Below are positions 3,038 to 11,877 of a DNA stretch of 11,877 nucleotides, in pieces; within the stretch, counting starts at the first letter, position 1, and each line of letters starts with the position of its first letter. A program made the translations under genes and the position numbers. The notes below the pieces were generated by a model. It had not been told where the DNA came from. It saw only the letters and a list, made by a program, of their open reading frames with translations, and ran no database searches. The stretch is from an uncultured bacterium. Its GTDB lineage: Bacteria > Bdellovibrionota_F > JAHFAK01. Location: contig CAZRKD010000028.1 in the NCBI GenBank assembly GCA_964600515.1, positions 1 through 11,877 on the forward strand, in the 5' to 3' direction.

Positions 3038-3478
3038 ATGAACCGTTTTGAAATCATTATATTTCTTTTCTTTAGTTTTGCTTGCGGGATTGGTTTATAT
3101 ACTTTTTATTATGCCAAAGGAGCATCGTATTTGACGAATGATCCACAAGCATGTGCAAATTGTCATATAATGGAAGATCATTATAGTGCATGGCTCAAAT
3201 CGAGTCATCGAAATGTAGCTACGTGTAATGATTGTCATGCACCTCATGATATTATTGGCAAATATTTCACCAAAGCTTTGAATGGATTTAACCATAGTCT
3301 TGCGTTTACTACCGGACGTTTCTCTGAACCTATCAGTATTACAAAACGTAATCATGAAATTACCGAAGCAAGCTGTCGATATTGTCATGCAAATATTACG
3401 AACATGATTGATCATAATCCTTCGGCAGATCAATTATCATGTGTACGCTGCCATGCCAATATTGGGCATGCACATTAA
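3038..3478 (+). CDS. nrfH: Cytochrome c nitrite reductase small subunit NrfH (NapC/NirT-family tetrahaem quinol dehydrogenase)
   Basis: 146 aa with an N-terminal TM anchor and four CXXCH motifs (CANCH, CNDCH, CRYCH, CVRCH). The first is CXXCHxM, as in Desulfovibrio NrfH haem 1. It lies 9 nt upstream of nrfA. Confidence 0.85.
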   Translation: MNRFEIIIFLFFSFACGIGLYTFYYAKGASYLTNDPQACANCHIMEDHYSAWLKSSHRNVATCNDCHAPHDIIGKYFTKALNGFNHSLAFTTGRFSEPISITKRNHEITEASCRYCHANITNMIDHNPSADQLSCVRCHANIGHAH

Positions 3479-3487
3479 GGAGAAATT

Positions 3488-4852
3488 ATGAATAAAAGAT
3501 TAATGATGATTGGAATGATTATTGTTGGAGCTATCGGTGCGCTTGGTATAACGAGTCTTCTCGTTACTATCTTCGAGCGAAAACAAGAAGCAAAGAATCC
3601 CTTTTATCGCGTGGTAGAAATTACCGATGAAACTGAGGATGCATCAGTATGGGGCAAGAACTTTCCTCTCCAATACGATGATTACTTGCGCACGGTAGAT
3701 ATGGTACGAACACGATATGGTGGAAGTGAAGCAACTCCACGAACGCCAAGCAAAGTAGATCCTCGATCTATTGTTTCCCAATCAAAAATAGAAGAAGATG
3801 AACGTTTAAAAACGATGTGGGCAGGCTATGCTTTTTCAAAAGACTTTCGTGAAGAACGAGGACATGGCTTCATGCTTGAAGATCAGACATTTACCGGTCG
3901 ACAAAAAGCAAGTCCTCAGCCTGGTGCATGTATAAACTGCCATGCTTCAACATATGTTGCAATGAAGGAATTAGGCGATGGTGATATTAAGAAAGGTTTT
4001 GAGAAACTCAATTCACTTCCCTATGGAGAAGCTCGTAAGCATGTTAAACATCCTGTTGGATGCGTTGATTGTCATGATGCAAAGACTATGCAGCTTCGTA
4101 TAACACGGCCAGCATTTATTGAAGGTATGAGAGTACTCAAGGCATCTCAAGGAATAAAAGATTATGATGTAAATACAATGGCAACACGCCAAGAAATGAG
4201 AAGCTTTGTTTGCGGACAATGCCACGTGGAATATTATTTTAAAGGAAAAGAAAAGACGCTCACCTATCCGTGGCATAAAGGTTTAGCTATAGAAAATATT
4301 ATTGCATATTATGATGAAGTTGGTCATAAGGATTGGGAACATGCTGAAACGGGAGCTCCAGTTCTCAAGGCTCAGCACCCTGAATTTGAGATGTGGAATC
4401 AAGGAATTCATGCTCGTTCTGGAGTTGCATGTGCAGATTGTCATATGCCGTACAAACGTGTTGGCGCTCAAAAAATTAGCGATCATCATGTACGAAGTCC
4501 TTTACTCAATATTGCACATTCATGCCAGACCTGTCATCGTTTTCCAGAAGCTGAACTCAAAGCGCGAGTTGAGCTGATTCAGTCGAAAACTTTTGAACTG
4601 CGTAATCGTGCAATGGATGCACTTATGGCTTTGATAACTGATTTAAAAAATGCGAAGGCTGTGGGTACATCGCAGGATACATTGAAAAAGACATGGGATT
4701 TTCAACGTAAAGCTCAGTTCATGATAGATTTTGTCGAAGCTGAAAACTCAACTGGATTTCATGCACCTCAAGAAGCGGCACGTATTCTAGGAACTGCGAT
4801 CGATCTTATTCGCCAAGGGCAAATGGAGATTTATAAAATAAAAAAGAATTAG
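3488..4852 (+). CDS. nrfA: Ammonia-forming cytochrome c nitrite reductase catalytic subunit NrfA (pentahaem); CXXCH-type active-site haem
   Basis: 454 aa with an RBS AAGGAG 7 nt upstream. It has five CXXCH motifs (CINCH, CVDCH, CGQCH, CADCH, CQTCH). The NrfA signature blocks 'WAGY.FS.D..E.RGH' and 'FVCGQCHVEYYF' are near-identical to E. coli NrfA. The N-terminus has one hydrophobic helix acting as a signal or anchor. Confidence 0.88.
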   Translation: MNKRLMMIGMIIVGAIGALGITSLLVTIFERKQEAKNPFYRVVEITDETEDASVWGKNFPLQYDDYLRTVDMVRTRYGGSEATPRTPSKVDPRSIVSQSKIEEDERLKTMWAGYAFSKDFREERGHGFMLEDQTFTGRQKASPQPGACINCHASTYVAMKELGDGDIKKGFEKLNSLPYGEARKHVKHPVGCVDCHDAKTMQLRITRPAFIEGMRVLKASQGIKDYDVNTMATRQEMRSFVCGQCHVEYYFKGKEKTLTYPWHKGLAIENIIAYYDEVGHKDWEHAETGAPVLKAQHPEFEMWNQGIHARSGVACADCHMPYKRVGAQKISDHHVRSPLLNIAHSCQTCHRFPEAELKARVELIQSKTFELRNRAMDALMALITDLKNAKAVGTSQDTLKKTWDFQRKAQFMIDFVEAENSTGFHAPQEAARILGTAIDLIRQGQMEIYKIKKN

Positions 4853-5682: not shown

Positions 5683-6198
5683 ATGGAAACAACAAAGCAT
5701 GTTCGTCCTTCGTGGGATGACTACTTTATGGAAGTCGCCAATACGATTTCAAAGCGTGCTACGTGTGATCGCGGCCGAAGTGGCTGCGTAATTGCGCGCG
5801 ATAGTCATCTTCTTGTTACTGGCTATGTTGGTTCTCCAACGGGACTCGCTCATTGCGATGATGTTGGACACCAGATGAAGAAATTACTTCATGAAGATGG
5901 AACAATAACCAATCATTGCGTACGAACCGTTCATGCGGAACAAAATGCTATATGCCAAGCCGCAAAGCTCGGTGTTTCGATTGCAGGAGCAACATTATAT
6001 TGTCGAATGACTCCGTGTCGAGTGTGCGCGATGCTTATTATTAATTGCGGAATATCTCGAGTTGTGTGCGAACGGCGCTATCATGATGGAACTCAGTCTG
6101 AGGCTATGTTTAAAGAAGCTCACATTAAACTGGAATATAAATTTGATGAAGTCCAAAAGTATGCCAATCAGGCAGAAATATCAAAAACTATTTCTTAA
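5683..6198 (+). CDS. comEB: Deoxycytidylate (dCMP) deaminase / ComEB-family cytidine-deoxycytidylate deaminase
   Basis: 171 aa. It has the zinc-binding motifs 'HAEQNAI' (H-A-E) and 'PCRVCA' (PCxxC), and the N-terminus 'RPSWDDYFMEVA' typical of dCMP deaminases. Confidence 0.8.
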   Translation: METTKHVRPSWDDYFMEVANTISKRATCDRGRSGCVIARDSHLLVTGYVGSPTGLAHCDDVGHQMKKLLHEDGTITNHCVRTVHAEQNAICQAAKLGVSIAGATLYCRMTPCRVCAMLIINCGISRVVCERRYHDGTQSEAMFKEAHIKLEYKFDEVQKYANQAEISKTIS

Positions 6199-7027
6199 TT
6201 TCTAATAACGTTTTTCTTCTTGGCTTAAAATTAAATTCCTCGCCATTTTTCTTAATTGAAAGGTGAAGATCACCAAAAAGGCAGGTCTTAATTTCTGTTG
6301 GGTTTTCTCGTTCAAACAGTAAAAATTGTTCCTGAGATGCAAATCCCTTAAAGATAATTTCTATTTCAGGATAACGAACTCTACCCGATATTTCTAAAGT
6401 ATTGTCCACTTTATCACCACAGGATTTCATTTTAATGTTCAAAAAATTACTAAAAGGATCATTGAATTTGTATTCTTTGCCTTGAAAGTAGAGATACGCA
6501 CTTGCCGCCCACTTTCCAAATATTTTCGATGATGCAATTTCAAATACACTTTCTTTGTCATCAAAACCGCTCGAGCTTATGAGTGTCCATTGCGACGTAG
6601 AAAGCTTTTTTGCTTCATATGTTGCCCATGCAATGGGTGTGTGTGAGAAGTTTTTATTATTACACGTACCCTTTGTAATTAATCCATAATGAGATGTAAA
6701 ATAGGGTATTTGCGGTCTGAGCGTATGAATCCAGCGAGGAGTAAATTCGAATTCTCGCGTAGATAAATTAAAATGAAGATTGAGATTAACATCTCCCCAA
6801 GTTCCAAGAGCATCTTCTTTGGTCAGCTTCAAGGTATGTATTGATATCGTATTTTCATTAAATGAATATTGATTGGGTGTAAAAATTTCTTTGCGAACAA
6901 ATTGTTTTCCATCATCATGGGCAAATGCAGCTCGAAGAATCGGAGTTCCCTCTTTCACTATCCAATCAATCAAAAAAGCATTTTTTCCGGTTGAAGAAAA
7001 AATGTACCAAAATTTATTTGTTTTCAT
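6188..7027 (-). CDS. Hypothetical protein with no family recognisable by eye
   Basis: 279 aa, rich in K/N/F, with no TM helix or signal peptide and no motif I recognise. It starts 16 nt downstream of the tRNA-Ser 3' end on the same strand, with no clear SD. It overlaps the comEB 3' end by 11 nt (convergent). Codon usage is AT-rich and uniform over the full length, which supports it being a real gene. Confidence 0.5.
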   Translation of the reverse strand: MKTNKFWYIFSSTGKNAFLIDWIVKEGTPILRAAFAHDDGKQFVRKEIFTPNQYSFNENTISIHTLKLTKEDALGTWGDVNLNLHFNLSTREFEFTPRWIHTLRPQIPYFTSHYGLITKGTCNNKNFSHTPIAWATYEAKKLSTSQWTLISSSGFDDKESVFEIASSKIFGKWAASAYLYFQGKEYKFNDPFSNFLNIKMKSCGDKVDNTLEISGRVRYPEIEIIFKGFASQEQFLLFERENPTEIKTCLFGDLHLSIKKNGEEFNFKPRRKTLLEIKK

Positions 7028-7043
7028 AATTTACGCTTACATT

Positions 7044-7133
<90 letters not shown>

Positions 7134-7148
7134 AAAAATTAATAAAAC

Positions 7149-8021: not shown

Positions 8022-9499
8022 AATATCTCACTCTTATGAGTTTTTTTCTTTTGTTTATTTCTCAATCATTCGGTCAAGAAACACGAGATAAAACTATTGT
8101 CGTTGGTTCAAAAACATTTACCGAGAGTTATATCCTCGCCGAAATTATTGCGGAAGTTATCGAAGATGTTGGCGAGGCAAAGGTAGAGCGGCGTTTTGGG
8201 CTTGGAGGAACGGGCATAGTGTTTACCGCGCTTGAAACGGGCGAAATAGATATTTATCCCGAATATACAGGAACAATCACCGAAGTAATTATTAAAAATC
8301 CAACGATTACTTCGGTTAAAGATATTCGTGAGGCTTTAGCGAATAAAAATCTCATTATCAGTGAATCGTTAGGATTCAATAATACCTATGCGATTGCGCT
8401 TAAACGAAGCACGGCCGAAAAATTACACATTAAAACAATAACTGATCTTATGAAACATCCCGGAATTCTTGTTGGTTTTAGCCATGAATTTTTAAAACGA
8501 AATGACGGTTTCCCAGCTCTCGAGAAAGCATATGGATTAAATCTTACGAATGTCATTGGAATTCAACATGGGCTTGCCTATACGGCAATTGAGAGCGGCA
8601 AGATTGAGTTAACCGATATTTATTCTACCGATGCAAAACTCACAAAATTCGATTTAGAAATTTTAAAAGATGATCATAATTTTTTTCCACAATACTATGC
8701 CGTTCTCTTTGCTCGAAAAAAACTTGCCGAAGAATTCCCGAAAACATGGCATGCGCTTCAAAAACTTGAAGGAAGAATACGTGATGAAAAAATGCAAGAG
8801 CTCAATGCCCGAGCTGAAATAGATAAAAAGACCTTTCAAGAAGTTGCACTCGAATTTAGAGGGGAATTACGCAAAGGCACTCAGTCGAGTTTTTTAAAAA
8901 AATTATGGGAGGTAAGCCTCGAGCATTTGTATTTAGTCATGATTTCTCTTGTTGCTGCGATCTTTATTGGGGTACCATTAGGAATAATAGCAACGCGATA
9001 TCAATTGCTCGGGCAGGCAATATTACTCGTCAGCGGATTACTGCAGACAATCCCATCGCTGGCACTCCTTTGTTTTCTTATCCCATTTTTTGGCATTGGT
9101 ACATTGCCATCACTTGTCGCTCTTTTTTTATACGGACTCTTACCTATTGTTCGCAATACCTACAGCGGTATAATTTCATTAGATCCACACTATCGAGAAA
9201 CTGCACGGGCACTTGGGCTTACTCACGTGGAAGAGTTACGATTTGTTGAACTTCCCTTAGCTTCAATTACGCTTATTTCGGGTATAAAAACATCGGCGGT
9301 TATCAATGTTGGTACAGCAACCCTCGCAGCACTCATTGGTGCGGGTGGTTATGGCAAATTAATTATTACCGGCTTAGCACTGAACGATATTCCCACGATT
9401 CTCTCCGGTGCCATCCCTGCTGCCCTTATGGCGCTCGTTATCCATGCATGCTTTGAAGTACTTGATAGAATTATTATTCCAAAGGGGATTAGATTATAA
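8018..9499 (+). CDS. Fused substrate-binding protein and permease of an OpuC/YehZ-YehW-type osmoprotectant ABC importer (N-terminal periplasmic binding domain, C-terminal TMD)
   Basis: 493 aa. The signal peptide is MKYLTLMSFFLLFISQSFG|QE. An OpuAC-family binding domain follows ('VVGSKTFTESYILAEIIAEVIED', as in OpuCC/YehZ). After residue 300 come about 6 TM helices with an EAA-loop-like 'ETARALGLTHVEELRFVELPLA' typical of BPD_transp_1 permeases. Confidence 0.8.
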   Translation: MKYLTLMSFFLLFISQSFGQETRDKTIVVGSKTFTESYILAEIIAEVIEDVGEAKVERRFGLGGTGIVFTALETGEIDIYPEYTGTITEVIIKNPTITSVKDIREALANKNLIISESLGFNNTYAIALKRSTAEKLHIKTITDLMKHPGILVGFSHEFLKRNDGFPALEKAYGLNLTNVIGIQHGLAYTAIESGKIELTDIYSTDAKLTKFDLEILKDDHNFFPQYYAVLFARKKLAEEFPKTWHALQKLEGRIRDEKMQELNARAEIDKKTFQEVALEFRGELRKGTQSSFLKKLWEVSLEHLYLVMISLVAAIFIGVPLGIIATRYQLLGQAILLVSGLLQTIPSLALLCFLIPFFGIGTLPSLVALFLYGLLPIVRNTYSGIISLDPHYRETARALGLTHVEELRFVELPLASITLISGIKTSAVINVGTATLAALIGAGGYGKLIITGLALNDIPTILSGAIPAALMALVIHACFEVLDRIIIPKGIRL

Positions 9500-10264
9500 T
9501 CCAAACAGACATTTCGTATTTTCTTCAGTAATAGTATCTATTTCTTCAAGAGTTTTATTCTTAATTCGTGCGACTTCTTCGGCAATATATTTTACATACG
9601 CTGGTTCATTGCGTTTACCACGAAAGGGAACGGGGGCTAGGAATGGAGCGTCAGTTTCAATGAGAATGCGATCGAGCGGTACGTGTTTACAGGTTTCTTT
9701 AAGCGCATCGGTTTTTTTAAATGTGAGTATTCCAGAAAATGAAATAGAGAAACCAAGATCAAGAAAGAGCTGTGCGTGTTCTCTCGTTCCCGTAAAGCAA
9801 TGAATCACGCCGCGCAAGTGATTATTTTTACAGTATGAAGCAATTATCTCATGTGCTTCGATAAATGCATCACGGACATGGACAATAATGGGAAGTTGTA
9901 ATTCCAGTGCAAGCTCAATTTGTTCTCGGAAAACTTTCTGCTGCATATCCCGCGAACTTGCGTTGTAATAAAAATCGAGTCCAATTTCACCGATTGCTAC
10001 AAATCGCTTATGTGAATTTACGATTTTTTTTATGTTTGTTCTAGACTCAGGTGAGAATGAATCAGCACGATGGGGATGAATGCCTATACTAGAATAGATA
10101 AAATCATATGCATTAAGTAACTCAGCTGTTTTAGTGTCGGCGAGATTATCCGTACATGCTAACGATAGCATTTTTGTGATCCCAGCGGCCTTTGCTCGGC
10201 CTATTACGAGAGTTCGATCGCTATCAAATGCATCAAGGTCAAGATGGCAATGACTATCAATCAT
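9494..10264 (-). CDS. tatD: TatD-family metal-dependent hydrolase/DNase
   Basis: 256 aa. It has an N-terminal 'MIDSHCHLD' and conserved His/Glu/Asp blocks (..IGEIGLD.., ..PIIVHVRDA.., ..GVIHCFTG.., ..ILIETDAPFL..). Its stop overlaps the permease stop by 6 nt (convergent). Confidence 0.85.
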   Translation of the reverse strand: MIDSHCHLDLDAFDSDRTLVIGRAKAAGITKMLSLACTDNLADTKTAELLNAYDFIYSSIGIHPHRADSFSPESRTNIKKIVNSHKRFVAIGEIGLDFYYNASSRDMQQKVFREQIELALELQLPIIVHVRDAFIEAHEIIASYCKNNHLRGVIHCFTGTREHAQLFLDLGFSISFSGILTFKKTDALKETCKHVPLDRILIETDAPFLAPVPFRGKRNEPAYVKYIAEEVARIKNKTLEEIDTITEENTKCLFGL

Positions 10265-10321: not shown

Positions 10322-11260
10322 CTAGCTTACTTTCTCCTCCTGGGTTTTATGAGGGTTAAACGATTTTATTTTTGGTATGCCCGGGGATTCCTCAACGTCT
10401 CGATAATTATCTTCAATTCGACGTAACATATCTCGTCCAAGTATTTTCTCAGGTGTATCTTCCGGAGCAGCTTGAATTACTTTTCTAACTCCACAGGCTG
10501 AAATTGTTTTGATGGTTCCGTCTTTTGTTTCAATCGTAATTTGTCGTGGAAGAATGTTGAGATATTTGACTTTGCACTCTCCATCTTCGCTTGTTGCAAT
10601 AAGATCATTGACCTTTGGTAGGCCTTGTGAACAATTACAATAATTTTTTTCTTCGTATGATAGACAACATTTTAATTTTCCACATAAGCCCGTGAGTTTC
10701 GTGGGATTCATTGATAGGCCTTGATTTTTAGCGGCACTAACTGCAAGCGGAGAAAAAGAATTAATATAGCGATTACAGCAGAGTTGTTGTCCGCATGGAC
10801 CAATACCTCCAATTTGTTTTGTTTCTTCGCGAGGACCAATTTGCATCATCTGAATACGTGTATGTAATTCTTGTGCAAGATCTTTTACCAATTCTCGAAA
10901 ATCGACTCGATTATCAGATGTATAGAAAAACGTAGCTTGAGAGCCATTTGCATGAAATTCGACACGAGAGAGTTTCATGGTGAGATTTCTTTCTTTAATT
11001 TTATCCAAACAATAATTAAATGCTTGAACTTGCCGTTTTTCATTGTGTGCTTCACGTTCCAAATCTTCTTTTGTTGCAACTCGTACAATACGATCACGTA
11101 TCTTTGTATCAGGAAGATTAATAATGAGCGAGATCTTGCCAACTTTGAGACCATCTTTTGTGTCTGCAACCACAAGATCACCAACGCGTATTTTAATATC
11201 AGAAGCATTAATACTTTCGGGCCGGATACTATTTTTAAATTTGACTTTCGCTATGCGCAT
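10322..11260 (-). CDS. ricT: PSP1 C-terminal-domain protein (YaaT/RicT-like)
   Basis: 312 aa. It has the diagnostic PSP1 cysteine motifs 'GPCGQQLCCNRY' and 'GLCGKLKCCLSYEE', an RBS AAGGAG 5 nt upstream, and a 26-nt overlap with the upstream holB. This matches the conserved holB-yaaT synteny of Firmicutes. Confidence 0.8.
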   Translation of the reverse strand: MRIAKVKFKNSIRPESINASDIKIRVGDLVVADTKDGLKVGKISLIINLPDTKIRDRIVRVATKEDLEREAHNEKRQVQAFNYCLDKIKERNLTMKLSRVEFHANGSQATFFYTSDNRVDFRELVKDLAQELHTRIQMMQIGPREETKQIGGIGPCGQQLCCNRYINSFSPLAVSAAKNQGLSMNPTKLTGLCGKLKCCLSYEEKNYCNCSQGLPKVNDLIATSEDGECKVKYLNILPRQITIETKDGTIKTISACGVRKVIQAAPEDTPEKILGRDMLRRIEDNYRDVEESPGIPKIKSFNPHKTQEEKVS

Positions 11261-11830
11261 AGAGACTCCTTAATCTTAAATGTAAATTGGTTAATGTTAA
11301 TTGAACATTACAATTTTCTTTAATTCTTTTCTCAAGTGATAGACTGTAATCAATACACTGGAAAAGTCTTTCGTCATAATGAATGTCAGAATTATTATGT
11401 GCTCCAATACGATCTTTCAAGCACATAAGTACCTCGCCGACATATTCCTTAAGTGTTTCTTTATCTTTAATGAGAAGAGCGTTTTCGGCAAGGGAATCGG
11501 CTGTATGGAAATTGAGATTATATGCTTTCTTTTCACCTGCAGTATTTTCTTTAGGTAAAGAAGATAAAGCTTGGGCCTTCAAGATACAGCTTCGTGATTG
11601 AATCGTCGGCAGTATCGCTCGTTTCGTATGGGCAATAAAAAACATAATAGTATTCGGTGGCGGTTCTTCGATTGTTTTTAAAAGTGCATTTTGTGTTTGG
11701 ATATTCATCGTATCTGCATCATCGATGATTACAATTTTATAACGTGCTTCAAGCGGTGCAAAATCAAGAAATGCTATAATTTCCCGTGCCGATGCGATGC
11801 GAATCATGTCTTTCTCAGATGTAATAATAC
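11235..11830 (-). CDS. holB: DNA polymerase III delta' subunit (HolB; clamp-loader AAA+), N-terminally truncated by the contig end/adapter
   Basis: 'KIVIIDDADTMNIQTQNALLKTIEEPPPNTIMFFIA' and 'TIQSRSCILK' are the Walker-B/sensor-1 region and the SRC motif of clamp-loader subunits. The reading frame stays open upstream of the track's ATG (11807) to 11830 (..GIITSEKD-MIRIAS..), where adapter sequence begins. The Walker-A N-terminus is missing. Confidence 0.7.
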
Positions 11831-11877
11831 CTGTCTCTTATACACATCTGACGCTGCCGACGATCTTACGCGTGTAG
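11831..11877. other. Illumina Nextera adapter read-through: Tn5 mosaic end, read-1 adapter, i5 index and start of P5. A non-biological artefact.
   Basis: CTGTCTCTTATACACATCT (11831-11849) is the Tn5 mosaic end. GACGCTGCCGACGA (11850-11863) is the reverse complement of the TCGTCGGCAGCGTC primer tail. TCTTACGC (11864-11871) is the reverse complement of i5 index GCGTAAGA, which I recall as S517/N517 and which should be verified. GTGTAG (11872-11877) starts GTGTAGATCTCGGTGGTCGCCGTATCATT. Confidence 0.92.

Follow-up and report, generated by a model that had tools for sequence, protein, structure and literature searches.

The locus and its neighbourhood

The window, by which we mean the whole stretch of 11,877 nucleotides analysed here (uncultured bacterium, GenBank assembly GCA_964600515.1, contig CAZRKD010000028.1), ends on its right-hand side in three genes, all on the minus strand.

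9494–10264, minus strand: TatD-family DNase gene (PF01026)
10322–11260, minus strand: PSP1 (RicT/YaaT-like) gene, downstream of holB (PF04468)
11235–11830, minus strand: holB (DNA polymerase III delta-prime), genuine 3′ two-thirds (PF13177 and homologue alignment)

The PF13177 match in holB is strong (E = 8.8e-26; 91.2 bits against a gathering cut-off of 27) and covers profile positions 73–159 of 161. When aligned to full-length homologues of 265–299 amino acids, the window's holB lacks about 88 N-terminal residues. The gene order around holB can be compared in three relatives, in each of which tmk (thymidylate kinase, PF02223) sits directly upstream of holB and overlaps its start by 4 nt, with PSP1 downstream.

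L127: holB 71% identical; order tmk-holB-PSP1
L122 (GCA_023250585.1, JAHFAK010000020.1): holB 58% identical; order tmk-holB-PSP1-TatD
L128/L129: holB 51% identical; order tmk-holB-PSP1

The holB-PSP1-TatD order of the window is kept in L122. A preliminary description of this DNA had placed tmk, as a probability, beyond holB; the synteny of the three relatives (71%, 58% and 51% holB identity) supports the prediction that tmk lies upstream of holB in this organism too.

Several other features of the window were noted. An AbiEii-family nucleotidyltransferase toxin gene (PF08843) occupies 212–1081. It is overlapped by 4 nt by an open reading frame at 3–215 that is cut at its 5′ end by the left contig end, where no adapter is present; this frame has no Pfam match, and we suspect that it is the end of a putative cognate AbiEi antitoxin gene. 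Genes for a NapC/NirT-type tetrahaem cytochrome and, after it, cytochrome c552 (PF02335, E = 1e-132) span 3038–4852, and are read as an nrfHA pair with a predicted role in ammonifying nitrite reduction. The tRNA-Ser(GCT) at 7043–7134 (minus strand) accounts for a 138-nt stretch with 90% identity to L122, a distant relative that shows just 70–76% identity in coding DNA. A 279-aa open reading frame at 6188–7027 (minus strand) belongs to no Pfam family; L122 has one of similar size (287 aa), also with no Pfam family, adjoining a deaminase gene.

Identity of the last 47 nucleotides

Genuine holB sequence stops at 11830. Positions 11831–11877 read CTGTCTCTTATACACATCT GACGCTGCCGACGA TCTTACGC GTGTAG, and the junction 11830/11831 in the window is ...GTAATAATAC/CTGTCTCTTATACACATCT. 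This tail resolves into four consecutive segments on the plus strand.

11831–11849, plus strand: Tn5 mosaic end CTGTCTCTTATACACATCT, 19 nt; exact match, the sole one in the window
11850–11863, plus strand: invariant 3′ portion of the i5 index primer together with the Read-1 primer site (TCGTCGGCAGCGTC, reverse-complemented to GACGCTGCCGACGA); 14 of 14 positions
11864–11871, plus strand: i5 index TCTTACGC, 8 nt, reverse complement of GCGTAAGA (Nextera XT S517)
11872–11877, plus strand: GTGTAG, the beginning of the reverse-complemented P5 segment (GTGTAGATCTCGGTGGTCGCCGTATCATT); 6 of 6 positions, the remainder lost at the contig end

The preliminary description had proposed exactly these coordinates and this four-part division, had named the tail as Nextera read-through with i5 index GCGTAAGA, and had suggested matching it against adapter strings. 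That comparison was made position by position, and all 39 constant, non-index positions agree, without a mismatch, with the Nextera i5 adapter (AATGATACGGCGACCACCGAGATCTACAC-i5-TCGTCGGCAGCGTCAGATGTGTATAAGAGACAG) in reverse complement; coordinates and division are both exact. The index itself is a catalogued one. GCGTAAGA is printed as Nextera XT i5 index S517 (PMC7770539), and the S517 index primer is printed as AATGATACGGCGACCACCGAGATCTACAC, index GCGTAAGA, TCGTCGGCAGCGTC (PMC9010798). The 33-mer formed by the mosaic end and the following 14 nt, CTGTCTCTTATACACATCTGACGCTGCCGACGA, serves for adapter trimming in 91 papers of the literature searched, for example PMC6460022. The i7 version of the adapter gives 17 mismatches to the tail, which is thus assigned to the i5 side. 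The tail is terminal and reads outward, ending at the window's last base; the contig stops before the final 23 nt of the P5 segment. The tail's G+C content is 51%, and that of the sequence before it 38.5%.

Both strands of the whole window were searched for other pieces of adapter (Nextera i5 and i7, TruSeq R1 and R2) as 10- and 12-mers. The left end contains none of them. The search returned one 10-mer only, TCGTCGGCAG of the forward i5 adapter, inside holB at 11603–11612. Its flanks are not adapter, and it is also present in two other assemblies of the locus (see below). We expect one or two such chance matches by our own estimate, and this 10-mer is genuine genome.

Native sequence beyond the junction

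The PSP1 gene beside holB served as an anchor for locating the native locus elsewhere. The exact PSP1 protein is also encoded on two metagenome contigs from the same population, L001 (ENA ERZ27245685, k141_237374) and L002 (JGI 3300009444, Ga0114945_10006670). L001 is 99.78% identical to the window over 6449 aligned bases and L002 99.81% over 6143. Both alignments stop exactly at 11830, and over the 330 nt leading up to the junction the three sequences show no difference. Neither L001 nor L002 carries the adapter; past 11830 they continue ...TGCAATCATTGTTCTTCGTGTACGAAAATCAACAAAAATATTCATCCGGATGTAT/GTATTATT... across the junction, which encodes ...YCNHCSSCTKINKNIHPDVC/IITSEKD (...IHPDVC/IITSEKD...). 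The holB continuation in L001 and L002 matches the homologues column for column, including a conserved cysteine cluster (C-x2-C) and the IHPD motif. From 11831 onward the native genome thus differs from the adapter tail. The expectation set out in the preliminary description, that the genome goes on with the holB N-terminus, is borne out by these two contigs, which match the window as far as 11830 and from there run on in holB codons.

Taken together, the exact match to the adapter and the existence of a native continuation leave us virtually certain that the 47 nt at the contig end are sequencing-library adapter assembled onto a genuine contig. A chance resemblance of genuine genome to the adapter can be weighed at the same point. 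One adapter 10-mer does turn up in holB by chance, as described above. The tail, however, matches at 39 fixed positions without a mismatch (per-position chance about 4^-39) and adds a valid index. The window has a single copy of the mosaic end, against about 0.01 matches to this 19-mer expected by chance even with up to three mismatches allowed. Moreover, the residues that the adapter would encode align with no homologue and include a stop codon. These probabilities and the native continuation in L001 and L002 refute the chance reading, to which we assign a practically nil likelihood. A blastn alignment to L122 at 76% identity does run 8 nt into the adapter (to 11838); we regard this as an ungapped chance extension and not as homology.

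L001 and L002 reach just 113–114 nt past the junction (L001:1–114, L002:1–113) and end at the same base, within the holB N-terminus. About 30 nt from this shared end, a 1-nt indel separates them (AAATAAATAAAAATG versus AAAT-AATAAAAATG). The common end is likely a coverage gap with error-prone last reads, and the two contigs are possibly drawn from the same underlying reads. We consider it improbable that the shared end instead reflects genuine strain variation or rearrangement upstream of holB and not a random gap in coverage. When JGI metagenomes were scanned with a 33-mer spanning the native junction, Ga0114945_10006670 alone matched and no further bridging contig was found.

The holB gene model

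Two features close to the junction, both on the minus strand, determine how holB is read in the window.

11805–11807, minus strand: internal ATG, the spurious start of a 190-aa call (ORF list)
11838–11840, minus strand: in-frame TAA within the mosaic end, closing the holB frame (translation)

The holB frame across the adapter translates as YTRKIVGSVRCV*ETG, followed by the genuine IITSEKD. Since the mosaic end supplies an in-frame TAA, the holB frame no longer runs off the contig and looks complete at 190 aa; the mechanical ORF list gives 11235–11807, 190 aa. A public protein collection contains P0001 (source NCBI, on a contig of 11,877 nt), also of 190 aa and 100% identical to this open reading frame. 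The adapter has therefore already caused a wrong gene model in a public protein set. It had been predicted in the preliminary description that any annotation in 11831–11877 would be spurious; the mosaic-end TAA and the resulting 190-aa protein, started from an internal ATG, are a concrete instance. For curation, 11831–11877 should be removed and holB recorded as 5′-partial, extending past the contig end, and not as a ‘complete’ 190-aa protein.

The same tail in public records

The matches listed for a 41-mer comprising the mosaic end, the 14-mer and the same index number 125, on at least 119 contigs from 42 assemblies among the GTDB species-representative genomes. The figures that follow refer to the matches listed (L003–L121, at least 119 contigs); the window is not among these loci. 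All 125 listed occurrences are terminal and face outward, and in 123 of them the tail is perfect adapter to the last base, the longer tails going on into the P5 complement. Tail lengths range from 41 to 76 nt and cluster at 41–50, with a mode of 47, the length of the window's tail; the SPAdes subset has a mode of 48. Most of the listed contigs (97/119) come from assemblies with 2–12 affected contigs, which by analogy supports the advice in the preliminary description to check other contig ends of this assembly. Among the matches listed, the affected assemblies belong to unrelated phyla, from Collinsella to Thaumarchaeota, and are MAGs or uncultured organisms where the record titles say so. Contigs with SPAdes-type names and an adapter tail number 53, with a median coverage of 5.5x (range 3.4–15.3); four with MEGAHIT-type names have tails of 43–52 nt. 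Adapter-bearing ends are also found on long contigs of 118–236 kb (L028, L115).

A search of 5,426 complete E. coli genomes (28 Gb) for the full 47-mer gave no match; scattered occurrences come from 9 plasmid and 28 phage records of unrelated hosts. This distribution is the pattern expected of contamination and not of a mobile element.

Some of these phage records deserve mention in their own right. In the ‘complete’ genome of Acinetobacter phage TAC1 (MK170160.1; L126:1501–1640, at about 22.6–22.7 kb) the same 47-mer, with the same index as in the window, is followed by junk and then by the forward i5 adapter, again with that index. Whereas the window has one terminal tail, TAC1 has a pair of adapter copies in inverted orientation, separated by junk and internal to the record. 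The native stretch CATCAGCTTTACCTTTCTCAATAC flanks the insertion on both sides, and the insertion, which lies between two CDS both annotated as tail fiber protein, probably splits one gene. In the Vibrio phages JSF5 and JSF6 (KY883634.1 and KY883635.1) and the E. coli phages ESSI2 and Lambda_4C10, the 47-mer or most of it is at or near the record ends. Some of these adapter-bearing phage records are in RefSeq (NC_049393-5), and one has the 47-mer under a ‘hypothetical protein’ feature.

The public records also bear on whether a transposon could lie in the holB gene of this organism, the tail then being a genuine Tn5/IS50 end or an engineered EZ-Tn5 insertion. Its first 19 nt are indeed a Tn5-derived transposase recognition sequence. 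The mosaic end derives from the outside and inside ends of Tn5/IS50 and is bound by the same transposase. It is, however, a synthetic hybrid, with three mismatches to the natural outside end CTGACTCTTATACACAAGT and four to the inside end CTGTCTCTTGATCAGATCT, and it is this synthetic form that the tail contains. Examined as a candidate natural transposon end, the tail proved to have neither an outside nor an inside end, and what lies inboard is Illumina sequence and not transposon body: the primer site, then a catalogued index of 8 nt, then P5, all known only from sequencing libraries. The lack of any match in the 28 Gb of complete E. coli genomes argues against an insertion, as does the presence, among the matches listed, of this very string at the ends of contigs from dozens of unrelated phyla. 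In addition, holB belongs to the essential clamp-loader genes, and the two adapter-free contigs show how it natively continues in this population. A transposon end or engineered insertion is accordingly exceedingly improbable.

Origin of the tail and of the contig break

The tail is the strand that is read when the sequencer runs off a short Tn5-tagmented (Nextera) insert on the i5 side. In the sequence of events that we envisage, Tn5 would have cut after 11830 to give a fragment shorter than the read length, and the read from this fragment, most likely Read 2, would have been left untrimmed or been trimmed against the wrong adapter set. At a spot of low coverage with no better-supported native path, a de Bruijn graph assembler would then have kept the k-mers made up of native sequence plus adapter. 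The stop after 47 of the 70 adapter nucleotides could be explained along the same lines: k-mers with fewer than about 8 native bases would be common to thousands of read-through junctions and would become branch points. Modelling this for k = 55 and 1e4–1e5 junctions predicts tails of 45–49 nt. The observed 47 nt would thus be consistent with a k = 55 graph, k being a value that we infer. Contigs with MEGAHIT-type names have similar tails (four cases), so k = 55 is not the sole possible reason for the tail length. More generally, such tails may by their length reveal which k the assembler used and how heavily the data were loaded with read-through.

The preliminary description had treated both the apparent end of holB and the contig break as artefacts. 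The first part holds: the end of holB is artificial, given that L001 and L002 diverge from the window at 11831. The break itself is a different matter, and probably reflects a low-coverage gap at which a short-insert read was extended into adapter. This reading relies on the clean assemblies, which gain just 113–114 nt, finish on the same base and have an indel near that end, and on the 5.5x median coverage of the SPAdes contigs. We also considered the version implicit in the preliminary description, in which the adapter tip displaced a well-covered native path, the break is purely an adapter artefact, and re-trimming and re-assembly would lengthen the contig substantially. As hub nodes, adapter k-mers do bring contigs to an end, and adapter ends occur even on the contigs of 118–236 kb mentioned above (L028, L115). 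On the other hand, assemblers clip short tips where a better-supported path exists; the short gain in L001 and L002, with its shared end base and nearby 1-nt indel, is as expected at a coverage gap; and comparable adapter-bearing SPAdes contigs have the low median coverage already given. Displacement of a well-covered path is thus possible but, in our judgement, rather unlikely. Trimming certainly removes the 47 nt and corrects the gene model; on the coverage-gap reading it may leave a contig no longer than its native end.

The tail is an ordinary and well-known assembly artefact and not a genomic feature; there is nothing biologically new in it, and no biological conclusion follows. Its use lies in quality control and curation. 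Sister contigs of the same assembly need screening, as in public MAGs the artefact is usually found on several contigs per assembly. Adapter tails of this kind can cause false overlaps between contigs, false ‘conserved’ 40–50-mers across unrelated taxa and spurious ORF boundaries.

Comparison with known adapter and transposon sequences

The closest known counterpart is the Nextera/Nextera XT i5 read-through with index S517. All four segments have the same sequence in the same order, and the arrangement is terminal and outward. Nothing of substance is different; the window's tail lacks just the last 23 nt of P5. The i7-side read-through (CTGTCTCTTATACACATCTCCGAGCCCACGAGAC...) has the 19-nt mosaic end in common with the window's tail, but after the mosaic end the tail departs from it at 17 positions. 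Relative to the natural Tn5/IS50 ends, the tail comes without a transposon body, it is flanked by Illumina-specific sequence, and the complete E. coli genomes do not contain the string.
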